Assembly (NCBI GenBank): GCA_038087875.1
Contig: CM075996.1
Span: 2,854,001 to 2,918,000 of the forward strand
Direction: 5' to 3'
Length of the DNA stretch: 64,000 bases
DNA from: Malacoraja senta
Lineage: Eukaryota
A program made the translations under genes and the position numbers. Within the stretch, counting starts at the first letter, position 1. Every line of letters begins with the position of its first letter. Below, in pieces: positions 3,476-50,107 of this stretch. The notes below the pieces were generated by a model. It made no database searches. It saw only the letters and a program-made list of their open reading frames with translations, and was not told the DNA's origin.

Positions 3476-4660
3476 CTACAAATGCAAGAAGATTAAGCAA
3501 CACAAGCCGTAAAAAATTAAAAGGTTCTTCTGCATACAGTACTGTAGGAGACAAGACTTTTTACGTTGCTATAAATGGCACTGGAGATAAAGGAACAGAG
3601 CAGAACACCACAATCAGTACCTTTGAAAAATGAGACATGACCTTAGGCTTTGTCTAGAATGCTGCAAGGTGCCGAATTTGATCAAAAATCTGGTACAGAA
3701 TGAAGAACCCATTCATACCCATCTATAATTTTTGTCACAGTTTAGAGCATGAAACCCATTAGAACCAAGCTTAAATGGTTATCTGCAGAGATATCCAATT
3801 AGCCCATTCCCCCACTTAATAACCCTAGCCTCGAAAGTTATATCCTCTAAGTGGCAACCTAATTTCTATACGAAATCTTAGACCATCACCACTTCCAACA
3901 TATTCATAAGCATCAAGTTCCAGGACTTATCTCTTGCTGCATCAAAAAACGTTCACATCTTCCTTGTATCGTTTGCCCAGAATCTCAAATCCACATTCTA
4001 ATTACCCAGTTTGAAACCCAAGATGCTTTGATAATTAAAGACAAAGTACCAGATTAATTCAGCAGGAATCTATAGTCACACCGCACTATAATAGTCTATA
4101 ATTCAGCAGGTCACACCGCACATATGGAGAACATGGGACAGATTGGGTCAGTCAGAAGGGACAACGTCTAAATTATCCACGTTCTCTAGAGATGTAGCCT
4201 GATCTGCTGAATTACTCCAACACTAACTTTTCTTGCAAACCAGCTGCAAGAAAAGATAGCAAATGGGCGGCTTGAATGTGCAGTTCCTGCCTGGATTAGT
4301 AACCTCTCTTCAGAGTCTTGCACATTAACTCTCATATTCATGCTCTCAGAAATCCATTAGCCACCCACCACTACCCTCCCTTCCCAAACATCACCCACTC
4401 CCCACCACCCCCTCCCTAACTACACATCCTCCTACCCCCTCCACCCACTTCTCCCTCCCACCCTCCTACCCCCAGCCCGCCTGCTCCGATATCCACTCCA
4501 ACCCACCACTACCTTCCCTTCCCAAATATCACCCACCTCACTCTCGCTCCCAACTTGATGGATTTAAGAGAGAGTTAGATAGAGCTCTAGGGGCTAGTGG
4601 AGTCAAGGGATATGGGGAGAAGGCAGGCACGGGTTATTGATCAGCCATGATCACAATGAA

Positions 4661-5340
4661 GGTACACAAAAATGCTGGAGAAACTCAGCGGGTGCAGCAG
4701 CATCTATGGAGCGAAGGAAATAGGTAACGTTTCGGGCCGAAACCCTTCTTCAGACTGATAGGGGGTGGGGAGAAGAAAGGAAAAAAGGAAAAAAAGGCGA
4801 AGGAGGAGCCCGAGGGCTGGGGGATGGGAGGAGACAACCAGACGGCTGATGAAGGGGAGGGGACAGCAAGGGCTAGCAGAATTGGGAGAATTCAATGTTC
4901 AAGCCCCCAGGATGTAGACTGCCCAAGCGGAATATGAGGTGCATTTTCCTCCAATTTACGGTGTTGCTCGCTGTGGCCATGGAGGAGACCCAGGACAGAG
5001 AGGTCAGATACGGAATGGGAGGGGGAGTTGAAGTGCTGAGCCACCGGGAGGTCAGGTTGGTTATTGCGGACCGACCGGAGGTGTTCGGCGAAACGATCGC
5101 CAAGCCTCCGCTTGGTCTCACCGATGTAGATCAGCTGGCATCTAGAGCAGCGGATGCAATAGATGAGGTTGGAGGAGATGCAGGTGAACCTCTGTCGCAC
5201 CTGGAACGACTGCTTGGGTCCTTGAATGGAGTAGAGGGGGGAGGTGAAGGGACAAGTGTTGCAGGGGAAAGTACCAGGGGAGGGGGTGGTATGGGAGGGA
5301 AGGGAAGAATTGACAAGGGTCAATTGACAATGAGATCCTT
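4661..5340 (-). mobile_element. Penelope-like element, 3' part (GIY-YIG endonuclease plus terminal repeat), in DLGAP5 intron
   Basis: ORF FTCISSNLIYCIRCSRCQLIYIGETKRRLGDRFAEHLRSV...HF (GIY-YIG). Inserted into a CR1 3' tail, flanked by ccatga(t/c)cacaatgaa at 4646-4660 and 5343-5358. Confidence 0.85.
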
Positions 5341-7385: not shown

Positions 7386-7714
7386 CAATGGCATCTTGCG
7401 CTTCTTGTGCTTCTTGTGCGTAGTGGTGGAAAGATTCGGTAGAAATAGGGCCGCGACTTGGACGCTCTTTCCTTGACCCCAATGCTGGAGTAACTCAGTG
7501 GGACAGGCAGCATCTCTGGAGAGAAGGAATGGGTGACGTTTCAGGTCGAGAACCTTCCTCAGACTGAATCAGGGAGGACCTTCAGGCGGGTATGAAGCAC
7601 CACGATACCACGTGGTTCATGACGTTAGTACGGGTGTCAGCGATTATGGGGAAAAGGCAGGAGAATGGTGTTAGGCGGGGGATATAGATCAGCCGTGATT
7701 GAATGGAAGAGTAG

Positions 7715-12260: not shown

Positions 12261-15200
12261 CGGGTGAACCGCCCTGAGAGGGAGTGGGGGTAGAACACTG
12301 GAGGACGTGGAGTGGGGGGGGGAGGGTGCGGCGGGGCCCTGAGGGGGGAAGGGGAACAATGAGCAATAGAGGACTAGGCGTGGGGGGGACCGCTGTGAGG
12401 GGGGGTGGGAGAACAGAGGAGGAGATAGCGCGGGATGTTTTGTAACTTTGTCAGCACCGTTTATGGGCGACTATTTGTATACCTTGGGCATGCAAGCAAA
12501 GAATTTGACTGTGTCATGTCACATGTGTCAATGTATTCCAATCCGTTCCAAGTCCCTGGAAATTCATAACCTTTGGTGTGTTTGATGTAGCTATCTCACG
12601 CTGCCAATAATCACACTGCACTGCAGATGGGGCTATTGGCTAACTTGTGGATACTAAGTCAATTTAAAAAAGTTGGAAATGAACTGCAAATTCAGGTTGA
12701 TACCAAAGATAAACACAAAGTGCGGAGGTAATCAGCGGGTCAGGCAGCATCCCTGGAGAAAAAGGATGGATGACGTTTTGCGTTTGGAGCCTTCTTCAGG
12801 CAAACATTTCAAAAAGGTAGACACAAAATGCTGGAGTAACTCAGCGGGACAGGCAGCATCTCTGGAGAGAAGGAATGGGTGACGTTTCGGGTCGAGACCT
12901 TCAGACAGACTCGGGTGAGGGAAATCTAGAGATATGGAAGGGTAAGGTGTGAAAATGGCAGATTAAAGCAGATGATGCTCAAGGAAATGTAGAATTGTTC
13001 ATTGTTGGCTGAGGGAAGGTGACAACGATGATTTAAATTAATCAGCGGGGCAGTGAAACTAGTTGGAGAACTAAGATGGGGGAGGGACGGAGAGAGAGGA
13101 AGCAATCTGCAGAGAAGGAATGGGTGACATTTTGGATCGAGTCCCTTCTTCAGAGACATTTGATAGAATGAATAATGAGTAATTTGGGAAATTATATTGC
13201 CAGAATAATTTATTGAAGAAGGGTCTCGACCCGAAACGTCACCCCATTTCTTCTATCCAGAGATGCTGCCTGTCCCGCTGAGTTACTCCAGCATTTTGTG
13301 TCTATCTTCGGCTTAAACCAGCATCTGCAGTTCCTTCCTACACAAGGAATTGCAGATTCTGTTTTTTTAAACAAAGCGAAGTGCTGGTGTAACTCAGCGG
13401 GTCAGGCAGTATCTCTGCAGGACATGAAGAACAGTGAATTAGACAGGTGACATTTTGTGCCGGGATCACTGTATCTCGATGCCCGTGACAATTATACTAC
13501 TGCAATGACAGGGAATATTCAGCAGATGGTGCAGTTGCTTTGGGGATGTGGACGAGACATAGCTTTGTAATTCCTGGTATTTACATCAATCAGATGTATA
13601 GATGATAGATTTACATCTATCATTTAAAATTAACTCACAGTAATGCACTCACAGTAACTCACCATAATGCATCAGGAAAGAGGGAAGTTCTGATGCCAAG
13701 CTTTATTTATTTAGCTGAGCCTCAGTTCTTCAGGGTTCAGAATTCGATAGACGTAGGAACAGCTAGTAGATTGGGCAAGGACAGAAACGAGTTCTGTTTA
13801 GAGATACAGTGTGGAAACAGGCCCTTCAGCCCACCGACCAGTGATCCCCGCACACTTACACTACCGTACACACACTAGGGACAATTTTACATTTATACCA
13901 AGCCAATGAACCTACAAACCTGTACGTCTTTGCAGTGTGGGAGGAAACCGGAGCACCCGGAGAAAACCCACGCAGGTCATGGGGAGAATGTACAACCTCC
14001 GTACAGACAGCACCCGTAGTCAGGATCGAACCCGGGACCCTGCAGCTGCAAGGCAGTAGCTCTACTGCTATGCCACCGTGCCGTCGTGTTCAGTTCAAAT
14101 ATGTAACTGTGAGGGCACAGACCTTCTGATCCAAGGAAAATGCCTGACATCTGTTTCAGACAAGGATGATGGATGCCAAACGCTTGCCCCTATCCAATAC
14201 TGCAGCTGGCACAGTTTTTGGTGCCAACTATGGATCAGCTGTTGGCAACTTTGTCTCCGAGACAGAAATGCGGTTCACATCCCATCCCATCCCATCCACG
14301 AGAAGTGATTCTCTGGCATGATACCAAGTTCAAGAAAAATGACATTAACTGCTGGAGCATCTCAGCGGGTCAGGCAGCATCTTCAGTTTAGTTTTGACAT
14401 ACAGCGCAGAAACAGGCCCTTCGGCCCACCGAGTCCGTGCCGACCTGCGATCCCCGCGCACTAACACTATCCTACACAAACTAGGGACAATTTAGAATTT
14501 TACCAAGCCATACCTGCTCGTCTTTGGAGTGTGGGAGGAAACCAGAGTGCTCGGAGAAAACCCACACAGGTCACGGGGAGAACGTACAAACTCCGTACAG
14601 ACAGCACCCCTAGTCGGGATCGAACCCGGGTCTCTGGCGCCGCAAGGCAGCACCGTAACAACATCCATCGAATTCCAGAATCTCTGGAGAACATGGATCG
14701 GTGTCGTTTAGGGTCGGAATTCTTCTGAAGACGAGCCGGAAGAAGGATCCGTCCCGAAAATGCACCTATCCATGTTCTCCAGAAATGCTGCCTGACCCGC
14801 TGAGTTACTCCAGCGCACTCTTGCACTAACATGGACTTGTTCTCTAATTGTGTTTTTGCTCTGATGTCTTGATTTGCACAGTCTTTTTCTTTTCACTATC
14901 TACTATAATTTATGTGCAACTTTCTTTTGATTCTAAGTAGACACAAAATGATGGAGGAACTCAGTGGGTCAGGCAGCATCTCTGGAGAAAATGAATAGGG
15001 GAAAGTGAAACTAGAGGGAGGAAAAGGTGTTGAACATATCAAAGCTGGCACCAAACCAGATGGCCAAGGAGCCAAAGTACCTCATATCTCTTAATATTTG
15101 TTTTTACATAGTTTTATTCTCTTTAATCTGTACTCTATCTCTGCAGCTCTCTATTTACCAATATCACCTATCTATCGAGATTGTTATCATTTTTTTGTCT

Positions 15201-19180: not shown

Positions 19181-21131
19181 TACCCTGAACCAAAACCTTC
19201 CGAGCGTTTCCCAATCAGAAACCTTGGATGAACTTTGAGATCCGCACTCTTCTGAAGTCCAGACACCGGGCATTCATGTCTGATGATACAGTGGCCTACA
19301 AGGAGTCCAGATACGACCTTGGTAAGGCCATCAAAAAGGCCAAAAGGGACTTCTGCTCCAAACTGGAGGAAGAGACTGATGTTTCGCCGGCTGTGGCAGG
19401 GCCTGAATGCAATCACCTCTTACAAGGCGAAATCAGGAGGCAGCTCGAATGTCGGCGAAACATCACTCCCTGATGAGCTCAATGCGTTTACGCACGCTTT
19501 GATAGGCGAGAACACCGATGTGCCTTGCCGAGCCCCCATTCGCTGTGATGGTATTTCAGTCTCAGTCACAGAGGCCGACGTCAGGAAATCCTTCAGAGGG
19601 GTGAACCCTCGAAAAGCGCCTGGACCTGATGGTATACCTGGTCGTGTTCTAAAAACCTGTGCGGACCAACTGGCTGGAGTTTTTACAGACATTTTCAACC
19701 TCTCACTTCTGAGGTCTGAGGTCCCCACCTGCTTCAAAAGGGCATCAATTATACCAGTGCCCAAGAAGAGTAAGGTAACATGCTCAATGACTATCGACCT
19801 GTGGCACTAACGCCTGTGGTGATGAAGTGCTTTGAGAGGTTGATCATGACGCAGATCAACTCCTACCTCGACAAAAACCTGGACCCACTGCAGTTCGCTT
19901 ACCGCCACAACAGATCAACGGTGGATGCGATCTCGCTGGCCCTCCACTCCACTCTGGACCACTTGGACAACAAAAACTCATATGTCAGGCTGTTATTCAT
20001 CGATTACAGCTCGGCATTAATACAATCATCCCCTCCAAGCTGGTTACCAAACTCGCAGAACTGGGTCTCTGCGCATCCCTCTGCAATTGGATCCTCGACT
20101 TCCTCACTCTCAGACCACAGTCTGTTCGTATTGGGTGGAAATGTGTCAGACTCGATAACAATTAGCACGGGAGCACCTCAAGGCTGTGTGCTCAGCCCCC
20201 TGCTGTACTCACTCTATACTCATGACTGCGTAGCCGGACATAGTGCGAACTCCATCATCAAGTTCGCTGACGACACCACTGTTGTGGGACGTATCACTGA
20301 TGGGGATGAGTCAGAGTATAGAAGAGAGATCGAGCAACTGTCCCATATGGTGCCAGCACAATAACCTGGCCCTCAACACCAGCAAAACCAAGGAACTGAT
20401 TGTGGACTTTGGAAGGAGTAGGATGGGGACCCACAGTCCCGTTTATATCAACGGGTCGATGGTTGAAAGGGTCAAGAGCTTCAAATTCCTGGGCGTGCAC
20501 ATCTCTGAAGATCTTTCCTGGTCCGAGAACAATGATGCCATTATTAAGAAAGCACATCAGCGCCTCTACTTCCTGAGAAGATTACGGAGAGTCGGTTTGT
20601 CAAGGAGGACTCTCTCTAACTTCTACAGGTGCACAGTAGAGAGCATGCTGACCGGTTGCATCGTGGCTTGGTTCGGCAACTTGAGTGCCCTGGGGAGGAA
20701 AAGACTACAAAAAGTAGTAAACACTGCCCAGTCAATCATCGGCTCTGACCTCCCTTCCATCGAGGGGATCTACCACAGTCGCTGCCTCAAAAAGGCTGGC
20801 AGCATCATCAAGGACCCACACCATCCTGGCCACACACTCATCTCCCTACTACCTTCAGGTAGAAGGTACAGGAGCTGAAGACTGCAACGACCAGGGTTCA
20901 GGAATAGCTACTTCCCCACATCCATCAGGCTATTAAACCTGGCTCGGACATAACACTGAACTTTACTAGCCAATACTGTTATTTGCACTTTATCAGTATA
21001 TTGACCATTGTGTATATATTTATAGAATGCCTTGTAGTAAATGCCTACTATGTTCTGTTGTGCTCAAGCAAAGCAAGAATTTCATTGTCCTACCAGGGAC
21101 ACATGACAATAAACTCACTTGACTTGACTTG
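19181..21131 (+). mobile_element. Rex1/Babar-type non-LTR retrotransposon, 5'-truncated, frameshifted RT
   Basis: [104 protein letters not shown]. Ends aataaa...(acttg)n. Confidence 0.92.
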
Positions 21132-22592: not shown

Positions 22593-25500
22593 ATCCCCAC
22601 TTTGCCATCCATTCCCTCTCCCAAGACCGTTTCCCTCTTCCACATACCTCCACAATCCTCTTATTCCTCAAGAGTCAAGAGTGTTATATTGTCGTATGTC
22701 CCAGCCAGAACAATGAAATTCTTACTTGCATTCTTGGGGGATTCTTTTTCCCCCAAATCTCTTTGTCTCTCTCTCTCTCTCCCTGCTACCCATTACCTTT
22801 CCTACATTCCCATGTTTATCTCTGAATCTTCTCCCTCACTTGATCTTCTGCATTGCTTGCGACCCTCTGTCTCCCTTGGTGATTACGTTGCACCCTTTAC
22901 CCTGTATCTGTACACTGCGGACGGCTTGATTGCAATCATTTATAGTCTTTTCGCTGACTGGAAACACACCTCCAGATTCAGGGACAGTTTCTTCCCAACT
23001 GAACCATCCTATTGCCAACTGGAGAGCGGTCTTGACCTCCCATCTACCTCAATGGAGCCCCTCAGACTATCTTTTATTGGAGTTAACTGGACTTATCTTG
23101 CACTAAACGTATTCCCCTTAATCTCTATCTTGGATATTTTGTATGATCTAAGTTCTCAATTGTAATCATGTATAGCCTTTTCGTTGACTAGATAGCATGC
23201 AAGAAAAAGCTTTCCACTGTACTTTGGTACATGTGACAATAATAAACTAAACCATAATACATTTTTTGTAAACCCCTTTGATGGTGGAGGGCTCACTATT
23301 GTTAAAGTTCATTTTCTTAAAACAGACAACTAACAATAAGTTAGGTAAAACCAACATAAGCTTTTACTGATCATTTAGCCAGCGAGAGTGCTAGGAGATA
23401 CAAAGTCAAGTATACAGCAGATACTTAACTCCTCCTAGTTAACCACTCTAATGAATGCAGACATACAGCATCTTTTATAGTATTTCGGAAACATAGTCAC
23501 ATGTTTATACAGAGTTGCAGCAATGACGTCTAACATATCAATCACAGCTCTACCCATTCAAAACATGCTTGTCACTGATACAATATGCTATGGTTATATT
23601 GATCACAAACTTTAGTCACGAAACCCCCAAATAACAGGAAGTTAGTCAAAGGTCTATCATCTGCAGTACCTTCTTAAACAATGTAAGGATCCTTATCAAT
23701 TGCCACGTTTCAGAAAGCTTATCCTCTCTTAAGGCTTGTGTTTACAGAAGCCAGACCCTTCTCAGCAAGTACATCCCCTCTCATCATTGTCAATATCTTT
23801 TGCTTGGTCACAACAGGAAGCAGCTTGGATACAGTTTGAATGCTGGCCTCCAATTTCCTGATTACCCAGCCCTTCTACACAACCCAAATTTCAAAGCTTC
23901 CATTTACTCAGAACCCAAAACCCAAAGAAGTCAAATTAATCTTTACTTAATAAACTACATTAAATATTCCATTATTGACTAGGATATGATCACTATGCAT
24001 GTTGGATAGTGTCTTCTGCACAGTCAACATCTTCATGGTTCCTTGTTGACTTTAAAGAACTTTGGGACATCCAGAGATTGTGAGGGGGGGGGGGGGGGGC
24101 GCTCACTGAAACTCCCCAAACAGTGAAAGGCTGGATAGAGTGAAGAGGAAGTTTCCACTGGTGGGAGAGTCTAGGCCCAGTGGACACAGCCTGCAAATAA
24201 ATGGACTTACATTTAGAAAGAAGATGAGGAGGAATTTCTTTAGTCAGAGGGTGGTGAGTCTGTGGAACTTTGCTGCAGAAGGCTGTGGAGGCCTAGTCAG
24301 TGGAAGTCTGAAGAAGGGTTTCGGCCCGAAACGTTGCCTATTTCCTTCGCTCCATAGTTGCTGCTGCACCCGCTGAGTTTCTCCAGCACTTTTGTCTACC
24401 TAGTCAGTGGATATTTTTAAGGCGGAGATTGACAGATTCTTGATTAGTACGGGTGTCGGGTTATGGGGAGAAGGCAGGAGAAACGGGGTTAGGGGGGAGA
24501 GATAGATCAGCAATGATTGAATGGCAGAGTAGACGTGATGGGCCGAATGGCCTATTTTGCCCCTATCACTTATGAACGCATGAAGAATTGGAAGTTTTGC
24601 TTTCTGCCAACGCAACTCTGCCTCGTATCCCGTGGTACTTTTAACTTGCGCCTTTCATCTTTGGAAGTGGAGCGCTCCCAACCGCTGAGGAGTCAGAGGG
24701 CTGTCAGATACCGTCAGAAAGGAAAGGTTAAAAATAGAACTCTGAACAACAGGGGAATTTTAAAAGCTAAAATATTAAACAGGAAAGAAAAATCTTCTGC
24801 GGTGGAGTTTAAAGATTTTCATCCTCCAAGCAATTCTAATCACTTAATAAACCATTGATTTTTCACAGCAAAAGAATAAGGAGAAAATCTATATTGAGTC
24901 TTCATCTACGTATTCCTGTTGTCCAGGGGTGTGAGAATAGGGAACTCACTACCTCAAGGAGTGATTGAGGTTAACAGTTTTTACCTTTTTTTAAACTTAA
25001 GAATCCTTGGAGACGGTGCAGAGAAAGTCCATGGGGTTGCTAACTGGGAAACGTGGGTTAATCTCGAAGGAAAGATTGAGCAGGTTGTGTTAATACTTTC
25101 AAGCGTTTAAAAAAACATGAGAGCGACCTTACTGAAAATCTGTAGGCAGGAACTGCAAATGCTGGTTTACCACATAGATGGAGGCAAAATGCTGCAGTAA
25201 CTCAGCGGTTCAGGCAGCATCCCTGGAGCAAAGGAATTGGCGACGTTTTGGGTTGAGACCCTTTTTCAGCCTGAGAGTCTGCGCTGTATCTCTAAAGATT
25301 AAAGCCTAAACTAAACTAAACTAAGCTTAAACGGGGCATCTTGGCTGGCATGAATGAGTTGGGCCGAAAGGCCTGTTTCCCTGCTGTACGACGCTATGAC
25401 TTGAAGAAGTCGACTCTCATCAGCGAGACACAGTTGAACAAACACTGCTTGTTATATCCCACACACACACACACAGGTAATAAGAATCAAACAGCACCCT

Positions 25501-25789
25501 TGGCTCCAGCCTGGTGGATAAATAAAGAGCCGGCTTGTGTTAGCTGCAGAAACTTGTAAATAATTTGCACATTTGAATGAGTCCTGCGATCCATGTATAG
25601 TTCCAGCAGAGTCTATTATTGCTACTCAGTGATTCCCACTGCTTTTCCCAGAGGTACATCTTTCTCTTTTGTTTGCTTCCACACTGCATCATGGTGGCAG
25701 CAGCTACCGTACATCAAACTCAGGCAACCTTGACTCTGGGGAATAGTCATCCCCTGTGCAAGAATAACATCCATTAAAGAGGTGTGTAT

Positions 25790-25823
25790 GTCTGAAGAAG
25801 GGTCTCGACCCGAAACGTCACCC
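25790..25823 (+). ncRNA. Minimal hammerhead-ribozyme-like motif in a Penelope terminal-repeat unit (representative of >20 copies)
   Basis: CTGAAGA (25792) - A - GGGT CTCG ACCC stem-loop - GAAAC GTC. Helix III is reduced to the palindrome ACGT and helix I is weak. Activity not demonstrated. Confidence 0.55.
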
Positions 25824-27058
25824 ATTCCTTCTCTCCAGAGAAGCTGCCTGTCCCACTGAGTTACTCCAGCATTTTGTGTCTATCCATTAAAGAGACATGG
25901 TTATAACAAGAACAGGCAAATACATTGCCATAAGCTGCTTAATTAAATTTGCCATTGAGTTGTTTTTAATTGTTATCATTATTTTACTTAATGGTGAACT
26001 CCCACCAACATCTACAATATCGTTTATTAAGTATAAAGTCATTCAATGGAATGGCAATTAAAATGCCATGAATCCAGATTTAGATTAAGGTAATAATGTT
26101 CACCCAGTGTGTAACATGTACAGCCAACTTCTAAAACATTTTTTAACTTTTTAATTTTCTGCCGAAGAAGGGTCCCGACTTGAAACGCCACCTAGCTGTG
26201 ATCTCCAGAGATGCTGCCTGACCCGCCGAGCTACTCCGACAATCCGTGTCGTTTTTGTTTGTAAACCAGCATCTGCAGTTCCTTGTTTCTGCGGGTGAGT
26301 CGCACGTGCTTGAATCAGAGTGTTGTGGGTTCATGCCTCAGTCTAGAGTCCTGGCTGATTCTCTGGTCTTACCGCACTAGAGACCCGGGTTCAAATTCTG
26401 ACTATGGGTACTGTCTGTACGAGATTTGCACGTTCTCCCTGTGACCGCGTGGGATTTCTCCGGGTGCTCCGGCTTCCTCCCGCATTCCAAAGACGTGCAG
26501 GTCTGAAGGTTAAATGTGTCGGAACGAACTGCAGATGCTGGTTTAAACCAAAGACAACCACAAAATGTTGGAGTGGCTCAGCAGGACAGGCAGCATCTGT
26601 GGATAGAAGGGAAAAGGCAGTCTGAAGAAGGGACTTGTCCCTGTTCCTTTTCTCCAGAGATGCTGCCTGACCCGCTGAGTTACTCCAGCTTTTTATGTCT
26701 GTCTTCGGGTTTGTAGGTTAATTGGCTTCTGTAAATTGTCACTCGTGTGTAGGATAGAACTAGTGTATAGGTGATCGCTGGTCGGCATGGATTCAGTGGG
26801 CCCAAAGGGCCTGTTTCCACGCTGTATCTCTAAACTAAACAAGTGTAGTCGTGAAGGAGTGTTGCTCTGATGGAGTTGCCATTGTTTGGTTGGGATGTCA
26901 AAATGAATCTCTTGCTCATGATATATTGGCACAAGATGGGGTAGAGGATTTACGAGTCATAGTCATAGAGTGATACAGATTAGAAATAGGTGCTTGAGGG
27001 GTACTGACCTGAGGGGTAACTTTATTATACAAAGGGTGGTGAGTATGGAACTAGCCAC

Positions 27059-27228
27059 TCTAAACTCCAGCACGGTGTCACTGTGTCGTTCTAAACTCTA
27101 GACTGTGTCACTGTGTTGTTCTAAACTCTAGACTGTGTCACTGTGTCGTTCTAAACTCTAGACTGTCACTATGTCGTTCTAAACTCTAGACTGTGTCACT
27201 GTGTCGTTCGAAACTCTACCACTGTGCC
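27059..27228 (+). repeat. 30-bp minisatellite, ~5.5 copies
   Basis: Unit ctaaactctagactgtgtcactgtgtcgtt. Confidence 0.92.
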
Positions 27229-27944
27229 CCCTGATCTATTGAATATTTCCACGATTCTCTGTCACTGTTACATTGGTGGATAATCTCATCTGGGTCCAGT
27301 GCTTAGTTAAAAACCAGATTCCCTCCAGCTGTCCACCACAGCCCTTTCTTTCATACCATGGGCTCCTTCTAATTTCCCGGTTGTGGATGTTACTGGGCCC
27401 AGCATTGACTGTGGCGTCGAGTGCGTGGGAAGATTGTTCCTCATTTAGCTTTTAAGACGCGCGTGGTTTCTCCTCACTGGACAGGATGAGAATGAGATTT
27501 TGTAAAAGCTTGTGAGGGTGTTCTCGCTGTTGACTTCATCTCCTGCTGTTCTCCCCCCCCCTCCCCCATTTCCCCCCGAACCTTAATACTACTTTTGATT
27601 TACCATGCTGCAAAGAAAATCCAGAGACCCGGCTGAGAGAAGATGCAGTTGCTAAAATCTGGTTGGATCTGTGGAATGGGAGAGAGAAGGAGAGGTAGGG
27701 AAGAAAAGGTTTATTTAGGTGTTGGTTAAGATTGTATCCAGTGCTAACCAATCAAACCAGTCAACTATCCCAAGACCAGTTCAGTCTGAAGAAGGGTTTC
27801 GGCCCGAAACGTTGCCTATTTCCTTCGCTCCATAGATGCTGCTGCACCCGCTGAGTTTCTCCAGCATTTTTGTGTACATCCCAAGACCAATGATGGCCTG
27901 CTCTATGTCCCTTGATTTCCTTGATTATCATTGCTTTTTGCATA

Positions 27945-29627: not shown

Positions 29628-29763
29628 CAACAAACAGGCAATAAACATACACTAAAGAGGAAAGGATACCACATACAAAATACTTACACAATACATACAT
29701 GCAAACATACTTACATAATATGCTCCAACCACTTACTCTGTGAAACAATTAACGGTCTATTGT

Positions 29764-29946
29764 AGGTAGACAAAGGTGCTGGAGAAACTCAGCGGGTGCA
29801 GCAGCTTCTATGGAGCATAGGAAATAGGCAACGTTTCGGCTCGAAACGTTGCCTATTTCCTTCGCTCCATAGATGCTGCTGCACCCGCTGAGTTTCTCCA
29901 GCACTTTTGTCTACCTTCGATTTTCCAGCATCTGCAGTTCCTTCTT
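29764..29946. mobile_element. Palindromic Penelope-terminal-repeat insertion with long flanking duplication
   Basis: 29764-29916 is a near-perfect inverted repeat centred on cgtttcggctcgaaacg. aaacaattaacggtctattgt is repeated at 29743-29763 and 29947-29967. Confidence 0.8.
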
Positions 29947-33600: not shown

Positions 33601-34570
33601 GGTAGACACAAAAAGCTGGAGTAACTCAGTGGGTCAGGCAGCATCTCTGGAGAGAAGGATTGGGTGACGTTTCGGGTCAAGACCCTTCTTCAGACTGAGT
33701 CAGGGGAAAGGGAAACGAGAGATAGAGATGGTGATGTAGAGAGATATGCAACAAATGATTGAAAGATACCACCCCATCTGCCATCACATACAACATATAA
33801 TCCTCCGACATTTTCGCCACCTCCAACGGGATCCCACTACTGGCCACATCTTCCCATCTCCTCCCCTTTCTGTTTTCCGCAGAGACCGCTCCATCCGTAA
33901 CTCCCTGGTCAATTCGTCCCTTCCCACCCAAACCACCCCCTCCCCGGGTACTTTCCATGCTACACTTGTCCGTATACTTCCCCCCTTGACTCCATCCAAG
34001 GACCCAATCAGTATTTCCAGGTGGGGCAGAGGTTCACCTGCACGTCCTCCAACCTCATCTATTGCATCCGCTGTTCTAGGTGTCAACTGCTCTACATCGG
34101 TGAGACCAAGCGTGGGCTTGGTGGTTGCTTCGCCCAACACCTCCGCTCAGTCCGTACTAACCAACCTGATCTCCCGGTGGCTCAGCACTTCAACTCCCCC
34201 TCCCATTCTGAATCTGTCCTTTCTGTCCTGGGCCTCCTCCATGGCCAGAGTGAGGCCCACCGTAAATTGGAGGAGCAGCACCTCATATTTTGCTTGGGTA
34301 GTTTACACCCCAGCGGTATGAACATCGACTTCTCTAATTTCAGCTAGTCCTTGCTTTCTCCCTCCTTCCCCTCCCCCTTCCCAGCTCTTCCACAAGCCCA
34401 CTGTCTCCGCCTCTTCCTTTCTTCCCCCCCCCGACATCAGTCTGAAGAAGGGTCTCGACCCGAAACGTTGCCTACTCCTTTTCTCCATAGATGCTGCCTC
34501 ACCTGCTGAGTTTCTCCAGCATCTTCCGTCTTCTTTCGATTTTTCCAGCATCTGCAGTTCCTTCTTAAAA
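33601..34570 (+). mobile_element. Penelope-like element with inverted terminal-repeat segment at the 5' end, GIY-YIG remnant and 3' terminal repeat
   Basis: 33601-33765 is reverse-complement terminal-repeat sequence. Then YHPICHHIQHIILRHFRHLQRDP...FRRDRSIRNSLV and FTCTSSNLIYCIRCSRCQLLYIGETKR (frameshifted). Hammerhead-like core at 34442. Confidence 0.85.
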
Positions 34571-34796
34571 ATCCAGAAAAAACCCGTCCATTTTGTGGAG
34601 CGTGCAAACCAATGCCCGATGTGATGGTGTATCCTTATTCAACAACTCACATTCTATCTAAGACAGACACAAAATGCTGGAGTAACTCAGCAGGATAGGC
34701 AGCGTCTCTGGAGAGAAGTGATGGGTGACGTTTCGGATCGAGACCCTTCTTCAGACTGAAGATCTCTGGAACTTCCTGGAAACAAGTCTGAAGAAG

Positions 34797-41542: not shown

Positions 41543-42399
41543 CTGTGGAGATTTTTGTTTTTTCATTTTAAAAGTCAGGAGCCAAGATTTAATTCAGAGT
41601 TACTAGCAATGGCATTATAAGGGACTCTCTAAACTCACAAACCAAAAGCATCTCTCAATTTCCCCCCAGTGCAACAGAATATAACACTTTGTCACATGTG
41701 ACAAGTCACAGTGAAATTCTTTGCTCGCATACCTTGACCAAGGTATGCAAACAGTCACACATAAAGGGCACTTACAAAGTTACAGATCCCCCCCCCCGTC
41801 CCTCTTTTTGTTCTCCACCCCCACCCCTCCATTGTTCTTCACGCCAGTTCCACCACCCCCCTCCCCCCAACGCCAGGTTCTCACCATAAGAACATAGCTT
41901 CAAAATTCTCTGTGCTTGTTGTTCTAGTACATGCCTCCTCTGGCAGCTCCTTCCATATACCCACCATGGTGGTTCATTAAAACCTAGAACAGTACAGCAT
42001 AGCAAGACTCTTCGGCCCACAATGCTTGTGCCGAACATGATGCCAAATTGAAAACTGAGCTTAAAAAACTTTAAGCTTAAGATTTAAAGCTTAAAGTTCA
42101 AACTTAATTAAGTTCAGTTTGTTAAGGTGGCCTGCTCCCTCCATAGTCCAATTACAGCATTAATCATGGACTCTTTCTTCCCCCCCCCCCCCCAATTCCC
42201 ATCTCACACACACACAAGCTCCCTCCCCAGTCATTGAAGATCTGTCTTCCTCCAACCTTCTCGTCCCACCACCCACCCCCACCTCCAATATTATTGCCAG
42301 GAACTGCAAAGCTACTTCTGTGCAGGTATTGCAACGTGTAAAGTCGCCGGTTGCAACTCTAACTCACCGACCGCAGCGTGCGAGTCACCGATTGCTTAC

Positions 42400-42628
42400 C
42401 GATGCCCAGATGGGTGTTGATGGAGGCGTACCGCGCCGTGCCAGTCAGGTTTTTGTTTTCCCGATATGGGATGTGCTGGTGAGTCCGCGCGTCGCGATAT
42501 TTCTTGGCCAGGCCAAAGTCGATGATGTAAACCAGATTGCCCTTCTTGCCCAAACCCATGAGGAAGTTGTCTGGTTTAACATCACGGTGGATGAAGTTTT
42601 TGGAATGAATGTACTCAATTCGACTGAT
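42400..42628 (-). CDS. CSNK1E: Casein kinase I epsilon, fourth coding exon (229 nt; HRDVKPDN catalytic loop, DFG)
   Basis: ctccag acceptor; [77 protein letters not shown]|gtaagc donor. Confidence 0.97.
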
Positions 42629-44974
42629 CTGGAGAGACGGCAGTGAAGAAAGACAAAGGAATTGTACATCAGTGATTAACATTGGAGACGCACCACGTTT
42701 GGCGGTCTACTACGGCCAGATATTTTTTAGTTTAGTTAAGAGATACCGCGCAGAAACAGGCCCCTCGGCCCACCGAGTCCGCGCCGGGGAAACCGAAGAT
42801 CTCGGAGAAAACCTGCACAGTCATGGGGAGAACGTACAAACTCCCTACTGACAGAACACTAGTCAGGATCGAACCAGAGTCTCAGGCGCTGCAAATGCTC
42901 TAAGGCAGCAACTCCACCGCTGCGCCTCCGTGCCGCCGAAATGCCCCAAAACCGAACAATTCTTACTTGCAGCAGCACAACTGGTTGCAAACACAAAGTT
43001 CAACAGATAATATTAAACAAAAAGCTTAATAAATTAAAAAAAAACTCAATAAAATACAATAACAACACAAAGCCAAAGGTCCCTAACTCAACCCAGGCAG
43101 TTTGTTGTTTCGTTGGAGTTCGTAGTGTTCAATAGCCTGATGGTTGTTGGGAAGTAGCTCGTTCCTGAAACAGGAAGCCAATTAGTTTTCAGATCTAAGG
43201 TACACAAAAATGCTGGAGAAACTCAGCGGGTGCAGCAGCATCTATGGAGCGAAGGAAATAGGTAACGTTTCGGGCCGAAACCCTACTTCAGACTATTCAG
43301 AAATAGTTTTCAGATCTATTTTAGTTTAGTTTAGAGATACAGCACAGAATCAGGCCCTTGGGCCCACGCCGACCAGCGATCCCTGTACGCGAGCACTATC
43401 CTACACACACTAGGGACAATTTACAATTTTACAGAAGCCAATCAACCTGCACATCTTTGGAATGCGGGAGGAAACCGGAGAAAACCCATGCAGGTCGCGG
43501 GGAGAACCTACAATTTCCGGACAGACAGCACCTGTCGTCAGGATCGAACCCGGGTCTCTGGCACAGAATCAAGTCTACACCACCATTGTCTGATCTATCT
43601 CTCCCTCCTAACCCCATTCTCCTGCCTTCTCCCCATAACCCCCTGACACCCGTACTAATCAAGAATCTATATATCTCTGCCGTAAAAATATCCACTGACT
43701 TGCCCTCCACAGACTTCTGCAGCAAGGAATTTCAGATTCACCGCCCTCTTTTCATCCTCTGCTGTGTCCCATTATCGCCCTCTTTCACCCCCCTGCCTTT
43801 TATTTAATTTCCCTCACCTCGGTCACAAACTTCCCTTTTTGTTCCCTTCTTCCTCTACATTTTAAATCTCAGCGTGCACTTCTGCCGGTCACAGATGCTG
43901 CCTAAACTGCTGAGCATTTCCAACAATTACTGTTCTCGTTTCAGATCGGCAGCAGAGATTTTTTTTATTTGCGTTCAAAATTTGATACGTAATCTGGACA
44001 TTTTAAAGAACTGACAACCCACGGTTCCTCATTTGTTCAGTTTAGCCCCTGTGAATCCTTGCTTCAGTTCCTTGTTTTTTCAAACACTACTTAACTTGTG
44101 CCAGGACAATGAGAAATCGAAAAGAAAAATCAGCTGCATCTCACGCCAAAAAACCTGCGATGGTCAACATGAAATTGGACACTTAGTTTGGAGATTTAGC
44201 ATGGTAACAGGTCCTTCGGCCCACCCAGTCCACACTAGTTCAATGCTATACCCCACTTCCTCACCAATTTGCCTACATTTGCACACTTCTTTGGCGTGTG
44301 GAAGGAAATCAGAGCAGCCCGCGGGTCAAAAGGAGGATGTGCAAACACCACACAGACAGCACCCAAGGTTAGGATCAAACCCAGGTCGTTGGCGCCGTGA
44401 GGCAGCAGCTCAATGGTTCCATCAACCCTTCCCCAGGGGCCACACACAGTTTAAGAATAAGGAGTAAGCCATTTAGAACGGAGACGAGGAAACACTATTT
44501 CTCACAGAGAGAGTGGCGAGTCTGTGGAGCTCTCTGCCTCAGAGGGCGGTGGAGGCGGGTTCTCTGGATGCTTTCAAGAGAGAGCTGGATAGGGCTCTTA
44601 AAAATAGCGGAGTCAGGGGATATGGGGAGAAGGCAGGAACGGGGTACTGATTGGGGATGATCAGATTGAATGGCGGTGCTGGCTCGAAGGGCCGAATGGC
44701 CTACTCCTGCACCTATTGTCTATTGTCCCCATTTTCCAGTTGCAATGTTCAGATTAGTTGCACGTTGGGGGTCAAGGAAAGAGCGTTCACGTCGCGGCCC
44801 TTGTTTCCACCAATCATTCCACCACCAACGCACAAGAAGCGACAAGACAGACACCGTTGCACGCAGATGCCGGGAAGCGTGCTCAGCTCTGGCTGAACAG
44901 CTTCTAATCTTGTGTGCGTGGACTCGACAAGAAGCAGCTGCAAGTTACGAATGAGTCGGAATGAACATCCATAC

Positions 44975-45123
44975 CATCTGGTCTGCCAGGAGCAGCACGG
45001 TCTTTAGGCTGAACTTGCGCGAGCAGAAGTTGAAGAGGTCTTCGAGACTGGGCCCGAGCAGCTCCATCACCATCACGTTGTAATCGCCTTCTGCGCCGCA
45101 CCATTTAATGGACGGGATCCCAA
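44975..45123 (-). CDS. CSNK1E: Casein kinase I epsilon, third coding exon (149 nt)
   Basis: ctgcag acceptor; [53 protein letters not shown]|gtatgg donor. PSIKW is epsilon-type. Confidence 0.96.
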
Positions 45124-45689
45124 CTGCAGGCAAGAGAATCGAAACATCAGTCCAAACACATAACCACCGGGCAAACGTGTCGGAAGGAAATGCAGATGCT
45201 TGTTTACGCCAAAGGCTGGAGTGACTCAGCGGGACAGGCAGCGCCTCTGGATGATCGGTGGAGTTTCGGGCCGAGACCCTTCTTCGAATGGGTGACGTTA
45301 CGGGTCGAGACCCTTCGAAGGGTCTCGACCCGTAACGTCACCCATTCCTTCTCTCCAGAGGCGCTGCCTGTCCCCGCTGAGTCGCTCCAGCATTTGGCGC
45401 CTAACCACCAAGCAAAGTACCAGGTTAACAATAACATAATCCTGCTCAATTGGAAGGAAATCAGCAGTTGTTATAATTGACCTCCTCTTGCCAGGAAACT
45501 ACACTTGGCCGACGACGGTGGTGGCTGCAACTTGCTGACAACACACCATTTGCACATGACCCAATTGTTCCGTCCGTGTTAGCAACGCGTGCTGGTGACT
45601 CAAGAACTGAAAGATGTTTTGCTACTGCAGCAGGCAGGCACAGCTCATACACACAATAGCAAATCTGGCAAACACCAGCAGCAACCACT

Positions 45690-46295
45690 TTATTTATTTA
45701 TTATTAAATATTTTTATTAGAAGCATAAACACATAGTAGCAACGCGGTTTGTTTACCAATTACATTCACACAAAGCTTCTGTTCTTTTTTATAGAATTTT
45801 TGAAAGATAGAACTGAAAAGAATGGTCTATAAACTAATAGAGAGGGAGGGAAGAAAAACAAGAAAAACAAACCAAGAAAATTACCGATAACAATTTTGGA
45901 GATAGGTCCGTAGATTATAAGGCGTAGTTTTATTCATCCAATCCTAAGCTCGGGCTTCAGTCCAGTTCCTGTGTTGAACCAGTTTACCTCTTTAAAAAAT
46001 CAATAAATGGAGACCATACTCTAGCAAATAGTTCTGGTTTGTCAGTTAAGACAAGTCTAATATTTTCCAAGTGTAAGGTCTCAGACATTTCTGGAATCCA
46101 CATTTTAATTGTGGGGGTTGTTGGGTTTTTCCAAAATCTTAGTATTCATTTTTTCCCAGTTATTATACCGTAATCAAGAACATTTATTTGATTTGTTGTA
46201 AGTTTTATACTTTGTTCTGATGTTCCCAATATTATTAATTTTGGATCGGGATCCAACTGAATATAAACAACCTCAGAAATAATTTTACAATTTTA
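45690..46295 (-). mobile_element. L1/Tx1-like LINE 3' end
   Basis: AT-rich; minus-strand ILRFWKNPTTPTIKMWIPEMSETLHLE remnant; ends in aataaa and (taaa)n. A similar 3' UTR-like stretch lies at 52270-52720. Confidence 0.6.
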
Positions 46296-47269
46296 AAGCA
46301 ACCACTTTAGACGAGATTCAGTATTGTGCTCACATTCACGTACACAGGTGGTGGAGCAACCGCCTCGCAGCGCCAGAGACCTGGGTTCGATCCTGACTAC
46401 GGGTGCTTGTCTGTACGGACTTAATACTTTCTGCGGGGGGTTTCTGCGAGATCTTCGGCTTCCTCCCACACTCCAAAGACCTCCAGGTTTGTTGGTTAAT
46501 TGGCCTGGTATAAATGTAAAATTGTCGCTAGCGTGCGTTGGATAGTGTTAGTGTGCGGGGAAATCGTTGGCCAGTGCAGACTCGGTGGGCCGAAAGGCCC
46601 GTTTCTGCGCCATATCTCTAAACTAAACCATTGCAGCAGGAACACGAGAGTACTGCTCAAACGTCTTAAAAATTGCGTGTAGTCACACAAGTCCATGTTC
46701 ATAAACGCTGCTCCTCTGAAGATGCAAGTTAAAAGTACCGCGGGAAAAGCTGGAGTATCTCGGGGTGCCGGCGTGGGGCATCTCTGAAGAATACAGATAA
46801 ATGACGTTTTGGGTGGGAAATTTCTTCAGCGTATGAAGGTCCTGACCCAAAGTGTCACCCGTCCATGTTCTCCAGAGATGCTGCCTGACCCACTGAGTTA
46901 CTCCAGCACTCTGTGTCTTTTAATGTATAAAACTGCTCAAGCACCAGACCAATCTAAATCTGGACCGAGAGTGCCCAGTCTCCTCGTAAAGAAATTAAAG
47001 CTTGACAGTAGAGTCAAGCAGCATGCACTTGCAAATAAACCTACTTGTCCATGCCAAGTTTAGAACTCACACAAGGCAAATCTGCTCCAGATCTTTATCA
47101 CATTTCTTTGGCCCATGTTCAGACCAGGGCTGAATTCCAGAAGGCAGAAGAGCAACTTTGCTTGACTTGAAAGCCAACATTTGAGCAAACAAGGAGGGCT
47201 GCTGGCATCCTAACCAATATCCTAACATCCTAACCTAACCATAACCAAGATAGACATAGCAGAGGGAGA

Positions 47270-47835
47270 CATAAATGCTGGAGAACTTCAGCGAGTGCAG
47301 CAGCATCTATGGAGCGAAGGAAATAGGCAAAGTTTCGGGCCGAGACCCTTCTTCAGACTGATACGAGGGTGGGGGGGGGGCAGGAACAAGAAAGGAAGAG
47401 GTGGAGCCAGTGGGCTGAGGGAGAGCTGAGAAGGGGAAGAGAAAGTAAGGACTTACTAAATTTAAAGAAGTCAATGTTCATACCGCTGGGGTGTAAACTG
47501 CCCAAGCGAAATATGAGGTGCTGCTCATCCAATTTGCTGTGGGATTCACTCTGGCCATGGAGGAGGCCCAGGACAGAAATGTTGGATTCGGAATGGGAGG
47601 GGGAGTTGAAGTGCAGAACCACCGGGAGATCAGGTTGGTTATCGCGAACCGAGCGGAGGTGTTGGGCGAAGCGATCGCCAAGTCTACGCTTGGTCTCACC
47701 GATGTAGAGCAGCTGACATCTAGAGCAGCAGGTGCAATGGATGAGGTTGGAGGAGGTGCAGGTGAACCTCTGCCGCACCTGGAAAGACTGCTTGGGTCCT
47801 TGAATGGAGTCAAGGGGGGTGGTAAAGCGACAAGT
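47270..47835 (-). mobile_element. Penelope-like element, 3' part (GIY-YIG), in CSNK1E intron
   Basis: ORF QRFTCTSSNLIHCTCCSRCQLLYIGETKRRLGDRFAQHLRSV, followed by the terminal repeat. Confidence 0.85.
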
Positions 47836-49518
47836 GTCTCTGGAGAGAAGGAATGGGTGGCGTTTTGGGTCGAGACCCTGCTTCAGAACCCGAAACGTCA
47901 CCCATTCCTTCCCGCTAGAGACGCTGCCTGTCCCGATGAGTTACTCCAGCATTTTGTATCTATCTTTGGGTTAAACAAGCATCTGCAGTTCCTGACCTAC
48001 CCTAACCTAACGTCGCATCCTAACTTATCCAAACCAACAAGCATCAAAAAGGGAAACTTCTGTGTCTGGAATCATAAATTACACAAAAGAAGTCCATTGT
48101 GATTATTGAACACCAATCACAGTAGCCATGGACAGTACCCCCCCCCCCCCTAAACTCCAGCGAGTACAGGCCCAGTGCCATCAAACGCTCACAGGCCCAT
48201 CCACCAGCCTCCAATGCTGGAGGGAAAACAACCCAAGCTTATCCAAGTTCCTCTTCTCGCAAATGCACTTTGGTTTCATCAGTTCCGACACATCCATCCT
48301 CTTACAACACCCCAAGCTTCAATTAGCTTCAGCCTGTTGAAATTCACACCCAACATTAAACAAGACAAAAAAGACCAAAGGCAACTTTACACTGCACCAC
48401 GGTGGGGACATTTGGTCAATTGCAAACAGAAACTTTCAAGAGGCGGAGAAAAGCTACTCTCAGCCGAATCTCACAACTAATCTTCACAGTTCAAAGTGAT
48501 TTCACAGCTGTGTCTCCATTACATTGGTTTCAGTTTGTTCTTCATTTGGACTCGCCCAAGAAATGAAGAGTGCAAGAGAACAACACGAGGCATTTGTGTA
48601 GGAAGGAACCACAAATGCACGTTTACACCGAAGATGGACGTGAAATGCTGGAGTAACTCAGGGGAGACTGGCAGTATTCTCTGGAGAGAAGGAATGGGTG
48701 ACGTTTTGGATCGAGAGACTGAGGCATTTAACTTTTTCAGAGAAGCAATTAAACGAGTGACAGAAACACAGGATGGATTTTCCAGTGACTGGTGGTCCGG
48801 TCCCTACTTTAAACAGGACAAAATTACGAGAGTGCTCTTGAAATCCCCCAGTAAATGTGGCGCCTAGGCTGGGTGAGGCGGCCGATCTCTACCTCATCGG
48901 GACCTCTGCGGCCATTAGGACGGTCAAATCTGCCCCGCCGGCAGCTCTGTTCCTATAGCCGACTTCTGAACCAAATTTGCAAGTCGCTATCTTGCCTCCC
49001 ACCGAAGGACATGAACCTCCTCAATACGGCAAGGCTCAGGAACCAAGGGTGTTTAGTCTTCAGTTTAGAGATACAGCTCGGAAACAGGCCCTTCGGCCCA
49101 CCGGGTCCGCACCAACCAGCAATCCCCGCACACCAACACTATCCTACACACATTAAGAACAATGTACATTTATACCAAGCCAATTAACCTACAAACCTGT
49201 ACTGCTTTGGAGTGTGGGAGGAAACCGAAGATCTCAGAGAAAATCCACGCGGGCACAGGGAGAAGGTACAAACTCCGTATACACACTCGGGATCGAACCC
49301 AGGTCTCCGGCACTGCAAGGCAGCAACTCCAGCACTGCATCACCAAATTTGAAGAAAATAATCAGCGGTGGACCTGTAATTGTGTAGGTGTGAGGGAGGC
49401 AAACATTTGTGGTTGGATGGCAGAAAATGCAACAATACAGGTACAGGCTGTGAAAGGCCAGAGACAGTGGTCACATTTTCACTCCAGGCTGGTCTCCACT
49501 CACTGCTCCCAGACTCAC

Positions 49519-49629
49519 CTCCTCCTTGCATCATTTTGTAAAACTTGCTTTCAATGTGGAGCTGTGGGTGTTTCGTTTTGACACATTCCAACTTTATTGC
49601 AACTTCTTCTCCAGTAGCTATGTTTGCAC
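49519..49629 (-). CDS. CSNK1E: Casein kinase I epsilon, second coding exon (111 nt)
   Basis: ttttcag acceptor; (G)[37 protein letters not shown]|gtgagt donor. ANIA and KFYK are epsilon-type (delta has TDIA and KIYK). Confidence 0.95.
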
Positions 49630-49728
49630 CTGAAAAACAGAGGGGGGGGGGGGGGGAGAAGAAGAATGTAAAAGAACGACTTGACCTCTCTTGGACCTTC
49701 TCCTCCCATCCCAAAACAGAGCTCACAA

Positions 49729-50107
49729 CCAAAGATCCTATAGCAAACAAGATAGTGCACTCCTGCTAAAACCAATGGGCTGACGTGTAGTACGCTACGG
49801 AGCGGAATGTCGGCCATTTCAGTAAACCCGACTTTGTAAATCCCTCTCGCAGTGTAATCAGCGTTGCGGGGGATCAGTTTGCGTGTGTGTGAGATATAGT
49901 GTTAAACGGATTATTCATAATTCTGTTAATTCATAATTCTTCTATTTTTTGTTAATAATAATTAATTTTGTTAGTGTCAATAAATTATAATTCTGTTAAT
50001 TTTCTTTTTTTAATGTTTTTTTTTAATTTTCTTTCAAGTTTTAAAAAATAAATTCTTGTGCCGTGTTTGAGTTGATGTTTGTATTAAACTTGCACTAGGA
50101 TCTTTGG
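49729..50107. mobile_element. Probable MITE, unclassified
   Basis: Perfect 12-bp inverted repeat ccaaagatccta ... taggatctttgg enclosing CpG-containing and AT-rich sequence. Confidence 0.55.

Follow-up and report, generated by a model that had tools for sequence, protein, structure and literature searches.

The hammerheads of Penelope-like elements (PLEs) have been described as carrying an extra A and a 2-bp helix I (PMC4209133), and 5'-truncated and inverted insertions of endonuclease-positive (EN+) Neptune-type PLEs (PMC8557442, PMC3846280) share with the elements analysed here a reverse transcriptase (RT) with a C-terminal GIY-YIG domain, a CX4CxxC linker, a partial-tandem pseudo-LTR (pLTR) with a hammerhead, an optional 30-40-nt tail, a head-to-head inverted copy and target-site duplications (TSDs). 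According to PMC11167929, the PLE protein nicks the two strands and starts copying from two internal positions close to the beginning of the ORF, using a template RNA that the hammerhead has left uncut; PAc, the Poseidon element of Anolis described there, has in common with what we propose below this uncut template, and with our copies two adjacent 3' ends separated by the tail, shortly downstream of the hammerhead. Non-LTR retrozymes (bioRxiv 10.64898/2026.07.22.740005; see also PMC7229834) resemble the units studied here in being non-coding, pLTR-derived, dispersed monomers with a type I hammerhead.

We analysed 64,000 nt of Malacoraja senta DNA (GCA_038087875.1, CM075996.1, forward-strand positions 2,854,001-2,918,000; hereafter the window), in which an earlier note had proposed a separate, retrozyme-like family of short hammerhead units moving on their own. 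We find that retrotransposition did produce these short units, each a copy of the terminal module of a very abundant Neptune-type PLE, and that they are probably by-products of this parent element and not a self-spreading ribozyme family. The flanking direct repeats reported for four of them are exact in all four cases, at the positions reported, and enclose inserts of 94, 100, 99 and 106 nt, the fourth of them in minus-strand orientation (hammerhead positions are numbered by the established hammerhead consensus):

24292..24304, no strand: left TSD of unit 1, 13 bp, exact repeat
24305..24398, plus strand: short unit 1, 94 nt, young subfamily, from the A of TCAGT (-3 from C3) to 3' site 1, by sequence
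24308..24335, plus strand: minimal hammerhead motif of unit 1, C3 to H17, by sequence
24399..24411, no strand: right TSD of unit 1, exact repeat
25769..25781, no strand: left TSD of unit 2, 13 bp, exact repeat
25782..25881, plus strand: short unit 2 of the second subfamily, with core 25792-25819; element sequence from -2 to site 1, preceded by 8 nt of filler
25882..25894, no strand: right TSD of unit 2, exact repeat
27767..27778, no strand: left TSD of unit 3, 12 bp, exact repeat
27779..27877, plus strand: short unit 3, 2-nt filler, then element from -5 to site 1; core 27786-27813
27878..27889, no strand: right TSD of unit 3, exact repeat
43183..43318, minus strand: short unit 4 (43198-43303) with its 15-bp TSDs, exact repeat

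The predicted cut of unit 1 falls after 24335, within the unit. TSDs adjoin short units above chance (25/100 versus a shuffled mean of 0.6 under a tightened criterion; the looser initial criterion gave 119 versus 62-68 in the control), with a modal length of 14 bp. The claim of more than 20 core motifs on both strands was borne out by a fuzzy search, which retrieved 36 in the window and none in each of 10 Markov controls; the core positions given were accurate to within about 15 nt, and the core at 13214 has a mutated C3. Several of the cores cited are not free units: those at 4753, 16736, 34442, 36866 and 47356 sit behind a Penelope 3' UTR, with GIY-YIG coding sequence listed adjacent to four of these five. 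Further copies in the window are:

4658..5338, minus strand: 5'-truncated parent copy, young subfamily, with GIY-YIG end, UTR and unit; limits approximate
26163..26285, plus strand: tailed unit, older and degenerate, with a broken core and no visible TSD
26620..26705, plus strand: unit with internal deletion, one arm of a head-to-head pair
29725..29940, no strand: head-to-head pair, one arm ending at site 1, the other tailed; 21-bp TSD; limits approximate
33901..34572, plus strand: parent copy, 5'-truncated, in which the GIY-YIG coding end is followed by a pyrimidine UTR, the terminal unit (core 34442) and a tail
47260..47890, minus strand: parent copy, 5'-truncated, keeping the GIY-YIG end and the unit (core 47356) and adjoined on the 5' side by an inverted unit; limits approximate

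The unit in the copy at 4658..5338 is nearly identical to the short units, and an inverted copy adjoins the copy at 33901..34572 on its upstream side.

Mobilisation by the local GIY-YIG Penelope family, as the earlier note had suggested, is supported: ORF-bearing copies contain this module as well and share the ends of the short units. The unit comprises the terminal ~95 nt of the parent element, or ~130 nt with the known tail, and its 3' ends are fixed at two places, site 1 (322 of 610 copies) and site 2, the tail (202). A partial tandem with a period of 3,944 nt (L301) shows that a pLTR is present, and the module that forms the 3' end of ORF-bearing copies is there also the 5' UTR of the full-length ORF, whose first ATG lies about 163 nt after C3. 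This ORF has a 1,019-aa frame with an RVT_1 match (E 5.7e-6, below the Pfam cut-off) and continues past a frameshift, and the upstream copy holds RVT_1 and GIY-YIG in one frame (E 2e-5 and 6e-4, below the Pfam cut-offs). A single ORF with RT and C-terminal GIY-YIG, a 30-40-nt tail at one end and an inverted truncated copy are thus found as in EN+ PLEs. In PMC8557442, a CX2-5CxxC linker ahead of GIY-YIG separates Neptune from Penelope and Poseidon, which are without it; the L301 linker reads CX4CxxC, and by this motif, which Nematis has as well, the parent would be of Neptune type. An initial label of 'Poseidon' was dropped because the linker motif disagrees, and the same motif sets the clade apart from PAc (PMC11167929, in the portion available). 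Two further differences from that portion are that the hammerhead and both 3' sites lie here in a ~165-nt 5' UTR and not in the ORF, and that it holds no discussion of run-off copies.

A PLE-type minimal hammerhead motif is indeed present, with CUGANGA, GAAA and UH in every subfamily consensus, together with an extra base after A9, G10.1-C11.1 and a palindromic helix III (ACGU). The extra A and the short helix I, raised earlier as caveats, are both described features of PLE hammerheads; the motif shares with the minimal ones of PMC4209133 the catalytic boxes, the extra base between 9 and 10.1, G10.1-C11.1 and the palindrome at 15.2-16.2, and differs in a predicted helix II of 4 bp and a helix I of only 2 bp (as in D. 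virilis). Stem II does stay paired across variants (U-A to U-G, with loop changes), but the changes are one-sided: only U-A/U-G and A-U/G-U exchanges were seen in the helices, and two-sided covariation was not found among the subfamily consensuses. Nor are core nucleotides conserved in excess over the rest of the unit, downstream positions being equally invariant. A search of the window against Rfam at E<=1 gave no hit to a hammerhead family, predicted single-strand folds do not give the hammerhead fold and are no more stable than shuffles (z 0.39 to 0.92; -1.07 with the tail), and the predicted hammerhead dimer fold reaches about -13 kcal/mol versus -24 to -29 for the predicted optimum.

The 5' ends are not spread randomly, so one of the outcomes that the earlier note had named as refuting did not occur. 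About half of the copies that reach the edge just before the hammerhead stop there: 72 of 132 at-risk copies end within 6 nt of its first base, a hazard of 0.091 per nt at 0 to -5, compared with 0.025 and 0.017 in the 3' shoulder, 0.015 at -6 to -15 and 0.004-0.009 elsewhere. Since 28 long copies picked by hand served as references, a copy whose subfamily is not among them may have been called short in error; upstream sequence was compared by anchored alignment, all-against-all BLAST being too noisy and bridged by neighbouring repeats. Exact genome-wide counts show 10.6, 20.3, 18.3 and 15.4% of copies lost at the four bases upstream of -1. The edge is about 6 nt wide with its genome-wide maximum at -2, and a single-base start at the Inr A proved too simple. 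The accessible parts of PMC8557442 and PMC3846280 contain no description of such a fixed 5' edge before the hammerhead.

A sharp upstream edge with a downstream shoulder is what the end of a template predicts. With modest confidence, we favour the explanation that the units are module copies with a 5' pile-up before the hammerhead, made by internally primed RT running off an uncut transcript, in which the hammerhead of the short copies would be a passenger. Reverse transcription would begin at internal priming sites some 95 or 130 nt into the element's uncut RNA and continue until the enzyme reached the 5' terminus and ran off, and the edge likely marks the start of the parent element's RNA, as judged from the pattern of copies; TCAGT at the edge fits an initiator (Inr) consensus. 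Priming in the upstream pLTR would yield short run-off copies, priming in the downstream pLTR long, randomly truncated ones, and a dimer priming both nicks may give head-to-head pairs, with host end-joining trimming a few bases and adding filler. Local filler DNA is seen at unit junctions. Counting against this explanation, the edge is several bases wide and not a single base at the Inr A, and transcription of D. virilis Penelope starts about 120 nt before the hammerhead, ahead of an intron, whereas the start proposed here adjoins the hammerhead.

Head-to-head pairs comprise 68 mixed (one tailed, one untailed arm), 18 site1-site1 and no tail-tail pairs, of which 13 were expected (p about 1e-9). 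The arms are of the same subfamily in 17 of 19 classifiable pairs versus 5.7 when shuffled; descent of both arms from the same RNA molecule was not supported, arm-to-arm identity not significantly exceeding the same-subfamily background (0.879 versus 0.857, p 0.14, n=15). The share of short and inverted copies differs between subfamilies (p 0.002, stratified sample), which also counts against run-off.

The most serious alternative, which we nevertheless consider doubtful, is an ordinary 5' truncation hot spot. In this case the template would extend further upstream, and either the TCAG-T-CTGA palindrome or the beginning of the C/U-rich UTR tract would make the enzyme stall, fold back or be joined to the target. 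The edge coincides with this palindrome, centred on -1, and with the end of the long pyrimidine tract that lies directly upstream in all subfamilies; the peak is several bases wide, inverted arms share the edge position of the short copies, and haplotypes are common to short and long copies. Within the tract, however, where stalling would be expected, the hazard is at background (0.008 per nt, -16 to -50), and junctions with neither overlap nor filler begin exactly at the A (L168, L169, L179). The foreign base before AGT is also more often G (2,002) than A (1,655) or T (1,300), an excess that counts against a hot spot and is compatible with a copied cap; junction chemistry could be the source of so modest an excess, and a lone G filler occurs in only 2 of 64 TSD-defined junctions.

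It is improbable that some short copies form a non-autonomous, SINE-like tier with ends not defined by the ribozyme, a variant of the earlier note's idea in which an internal promoter would drive transcription of the copies themselves and renewed mobilisation would occur in trans. In its favour, the two priming sites both lie within the unit, the Penelope promoter of D. virilis is internal and TATA-less, pLTRs in cis suffice for mobilisation in trans and units exceed RT-bearing copies by over a hundredfold. Against this, a test of 77 variants showed no enrichment among short or inverted copies at p<0.15 (five variants confined to these copies have p>=0.19), and only 0-38 nt separate TSD from unit in 64 junctions, which were chosen as near the unit. 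No short-only variant was found in 304 copies, short copies are letter-identical to the ends of long ones, and the two commonest 88-nt haplotypes occur in long, short and inverted copies (6/15/3 and 3/9/1).

True non-LTR retrozymes, in which the hammerhead would cut tandem transcripts into monomers or circles that are reverse-transcribed and inserted, are largely refuted and very improbable, and the earlier claim of a separate family is not supported. The catalytic boxes and the ACGU palindrome survive in every subfamily consensus, and rare head-to-tail junctions or arrays exist (4/507, the L303 array and 'goes back' joints), but the cut site lies inside the unit, ~30 nt from its 5' end and 65 or 100 nt from its 3' end, so that the units are not bounded by it as retrozymes are. 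The predicted cut site itself shows no excess of 5' ends (0.005 per nt, 5/203), the cut-site pattern was matched 466 times and a longer control pattern 283 times, and of 15 cut-site matches inspected only about 2 were clean starts. The intact motif is kept in 67 of 232 copies, with G12, retained in 73%, decaying as a CpG. Two or more consecutive complete hammerheads, as in retrozymes, were absent from the seven tandem arrays in 1.02 Mb of sampled genome, none of which holds an intact core; the GAAA box of the L303 array is mutated. Since haplotypes are shared with the autonomous element, giving no sign of a separate lineage among 304 copies (minor ones may exist), and the sampled ~1 Mb holds no intact-core tandem array, the term retrozyme is not supported. 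Tandem candidates on C18 turned out to be segmental duplications.

Derivation of the short copies from RNA spliced at a 3' splice site is just as improbable: the core follows a pyrimidine tract with CAG at its end, and the D. virilis intron ends at helix I (PMC4209133), but we found no intron-less junction of the one form searched in 1.94 Gb, no GT..AG joint at the edge among the 15 joints listed (a further 546 exist), no donor GT in the young subfamily and no upstream exon between TSD and unit.

Under the favoured run-off explanation, the copies argue at genome scale that the template is not hammerhead-cut RNA, give a precise predicted RNA start and would show in the head-to-head insertions two priming sites used one per strand, which bears on how PLEs build pseudo-LTRs, tails and inverted ends and on the role of the hammerhead. 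It is a speculative and rather unlikely extension that PLEs make LTR-style strong-stop cDNA, with priming in the 5' pLTR, run-off at the cap and a jump to the identical 3' pLTR. If so, long copies and partial tandems would result from the jump, each short unit would be a strong-stop product integrated without it, the transcription start would be marked in hundreds of thousands of copies, and some units may spread again as a mini-SINE tier. The copies are also a warning for motif scans, which will score a very large number of dead Penelope stumps as ribozymes or retrozymes. The same boundaries recur as loose ends in contigs of other organisms.

The short units that the earlier note had read as retrozyme-like are ~95-nt terminal modules (~130 nt with a tail) of a Neptune-type Penelope-like element (PLE), and what it had seen of them holds: its four flanking direct repeats are exact (4/4), and its more than 20 core motifs amount to 36 fuzzy cores in the window versus 0 in 10 controls. 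In our motif we find the catalytic boxes, an extra base following A9, G10.1-C11.1 and the palindromic ACGU, all listed features of PLE minimal hammerheads, as well as a 2-bp helix I like the one of D. virilis (PMC4209133). A unit HMM gave 726 matches across an unselected sample of 1,024 kb, large contigs carrying 34-72 per 100 kb. Scaled up to this 1.94-Gb genome, which by its repeats appears to be of shark or ray type, this gives a copy number around a million; 37,961 copies (genome-wide, summed) match one exact 29-base core pattern. In the window (G000:C20:2854001-2918000), which is also filled with many LINE 3' ends and SINE copies, the units are interspersed with other repeats within and next to a protein-kinase gene:

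42359-49765 (minus strand): exons of the protein-kinase gene (Pkinase match), presumably casein-kinase-1-like, with several units in its introns
19256-20878 (plus strand): frameshifted reverse transcriptase (RT) of a non-LTR retrotransposon (RVT_1, E 1.6e-18)

We expressed the distribution of 5' ends as a hazard per nt, with position 0 at C3 of the motif (C of CTGAAGA) and the predicted cut between +27 and +28, in 242 of the 507 copies anchored across 1,024 kb (leaving out 235 that were inverted, 18 in tandem and 12 of insufficient length), using 28 hand-picked references against which chance matches lengthen ends by 1-2 nt. The hazard was 0.006-0.009 from +52 to +31, 0.005 (5/203) around the cut site (+30 to +26), 0.008 from +25 to +16, 0.017 from +15 to +6 and 0.025 from +5 to +1, then 0.091 (72/132) from 0 to -5, 0.015 from -6 to -15 and 0.004-0.008 further upstream, a profile whose shape was unchanged in the 197 least diverged copies. 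The ends are thus not defined by the ribozyme, since the hazard is flat at the cut and the ends concentrate at 0 to -5 instead. Genome-wide, a pattern for +28 starts gave 466 matches versus 283 for a +25 start, a control that is 3 bases longer and includes a CpG; upon inspection, ~2 of 15 +28 matches were clean starts, the remainder being deletions, point changes or inversions, compared to 1 of 15 control loci. The motif is intact in only 67 of 232 copies, and within its core G12 is conserved least (73%, CpG decay); no excess conservation of the core was found, as downstream non-core positions are equally invariant. Inserted copies lose the motif by neutral decay, while it probably matters to the parent element, because the masters have kept it.

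TSDs flank 25 of 100 short copies (control mean 0.6), 8 of 91 copies ending within the unit (control 1.0) and 2 of 44 long copies (control 0.25). Genome-wide counts agree with the hazard: native TCAGT occurs 18,695 times, and non-native bases, whose counts take in point mutants and inverted junctions, occur 4,016 (-2), 6,896 (-3), 4,957 (-4) and 3,397 (-5) times. By eye, long copies made up 22 of 30 TCAGT loci, compared to 5 of 30 for class -2 and likewise 5 of 30 for class -3. The foreign base at -4 was more often G (2,002) than A (1,655) or T (1,300) despite AT-rich flanks, a hint, not proof, of a copied cap. At 64 TSD-defined junctions (of 210 pattern-selected loci) the TSD mode was 14 bp and 27 lacked filler; many of the longer fillers are copies of nearby DNA. 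Loose ends at matching boundaries also occur in contigs of other organisms.

In copies found through the GIY-YIG protein, the stop codon is followed by a pyrimidine-rich UTR and then by the unit module, which ends at one of two shared points, ~+93 (site 1) or ~35 nt beyond (site 2, with the tail); 8 of 10 such loci extend past the core and 2 break off within it. At L301, a truncated copy lies upstream of a full-length copy (period 3,944 nt) that has module and tail, then an ATG at ~+163 and an RT and GIY-YIG ORF interrupted by one frameshift. Its linker contains CX4CxxC, a mark of Neptune or Nematis not in Penelope/Poseidon, according to PMC8557442. Because GIY-YIG-found copies end in the module and L301 has it before the ORF, the unit is the core of the pseudo-LTR (pLTR), forming the 3' end of every insertion and the 5' UTR of the mRNA. 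The two tail-separated 3' ends correspond to the pair of internal sites at which PAc was shown to initiate in vitro, and insertion of PAc was unchanged by hammerhead mutants (PMC11167929). Judging by its sequence, the tail resembles a duplicated site-1 region, which may offer one putative binding site per enzyme subunit. Three further features concern these elements:

L301:4850-4905: a copy of TCCAGCAT before each of site 1 and site 2, able to pair with the upstream AUGCUG
L301:4824-4950: a 41-codon upstream ORF across unit and tail of the young subfamily, stopping just beyond the main ATG; its frame is not maintained in the other main subfamily
G000:C20, ~87 kb past the start of the window (block C20 287288-287464, minus strand): an internally deleted element (single copy in 824 kb), in which unit and tail lead into the ORF's first ~45 nt, fused there to the 3' UTR and a second unit

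Reverse transcription would run off at the 5' end of the element transcript, leaving short copies with a fixed 5' edge. We lean towards this origin of the short copies, since a template end is expected to give an edge that is sharp upstream and has a shoulder downstream, and TCAGT at the unit edge fits the initiator consensus. Run-off is also favoured by the start site that the pLTR carries in other PLEs (PMC2377424). Less likely, the same edge would reflect a hot spot for stalling or fold-back, located at the palindrome or the tract. That short copies form a self-propagating tier is improbable, and the self-moving separate family of the earlier note is not supported by the two commonest exact 88-nt haplotypes, which are common to long, short and inverted copies. 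Clustering of 304 young copies, left from 338 once 34 with gaps were removed, placed all three classes in every cluster, in unequal proportions (p 0.002), and no variant confined to short copies had support among the 304. That the units are true retrozymes is very improbable, given the flat hazard at the cut and the absence of an intact core from all 7 tandem arrays touching the unit in 1.02 Mb; tandem intact units define retrozymes in bioRxiv 10.64898/2026.07.22.740005 and occur in non-LTR retrozymes, whereas the units here lack them in 1.02 Mb. The supplements of that preprint include chondrichthyan families, and arrays of the present family may be among them. A head-to-tail neighbour lies downstream of 4 of 507 copies. 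The insertions are real; the retrozyme reading is not supported. A splice-site origin of the edge is likewise very improbable. Tandem pieces were observed at the following locus, and C20 carries comparable 66-nt arrays beyond the window:

L303:430-1035 (G000:C2090, minus strand): a head-to-tail array whose 66-98-nt pieces belong to an older unit subfamily and whose GAAA box is mutated

We counted 121 adjacent head-to-head pairs in 824 kb. With 35 set aside because an end was broken, 86 were scorable: 68 joined site 1 to a tail, 18 showed site 1 in both arms (decayed tails may account for some) and none had the tail twice, versus 13 expected. Of 19 classifiable pairs, 17 had both arms from a single subfamily. 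PLEs with a tail at just one end are already known from PMC3846280 and PMC8557442; new here is the count of tail combinations. We infer that mixed pairs fit a dimer priming at one site per nicked strand, and they also fit fold-back with subsequent cutting at site 1. The type of family, its tail, its inversions and its hammerhead were likewise known, and the fixed 5' edge of short PLE copies was not found in a literature search that covered few subscription papers; such copies are a useful, testable clue to PLE copying.

The window also holds copies of a dispersed repeat; the HDV-like CPEB3 ribozyme model matches its 5' end at 35.0 bits, equal to the gathering score:

44756-44840 (plus strand): first copy
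7409-7480 (minus strand): second copy

With two more in the sampled DNA, four copies are present in 1.02 Mb; their homology begins at the G run, and the repeat is possibly a retroelement headed by a predicted HDV ribozyme.
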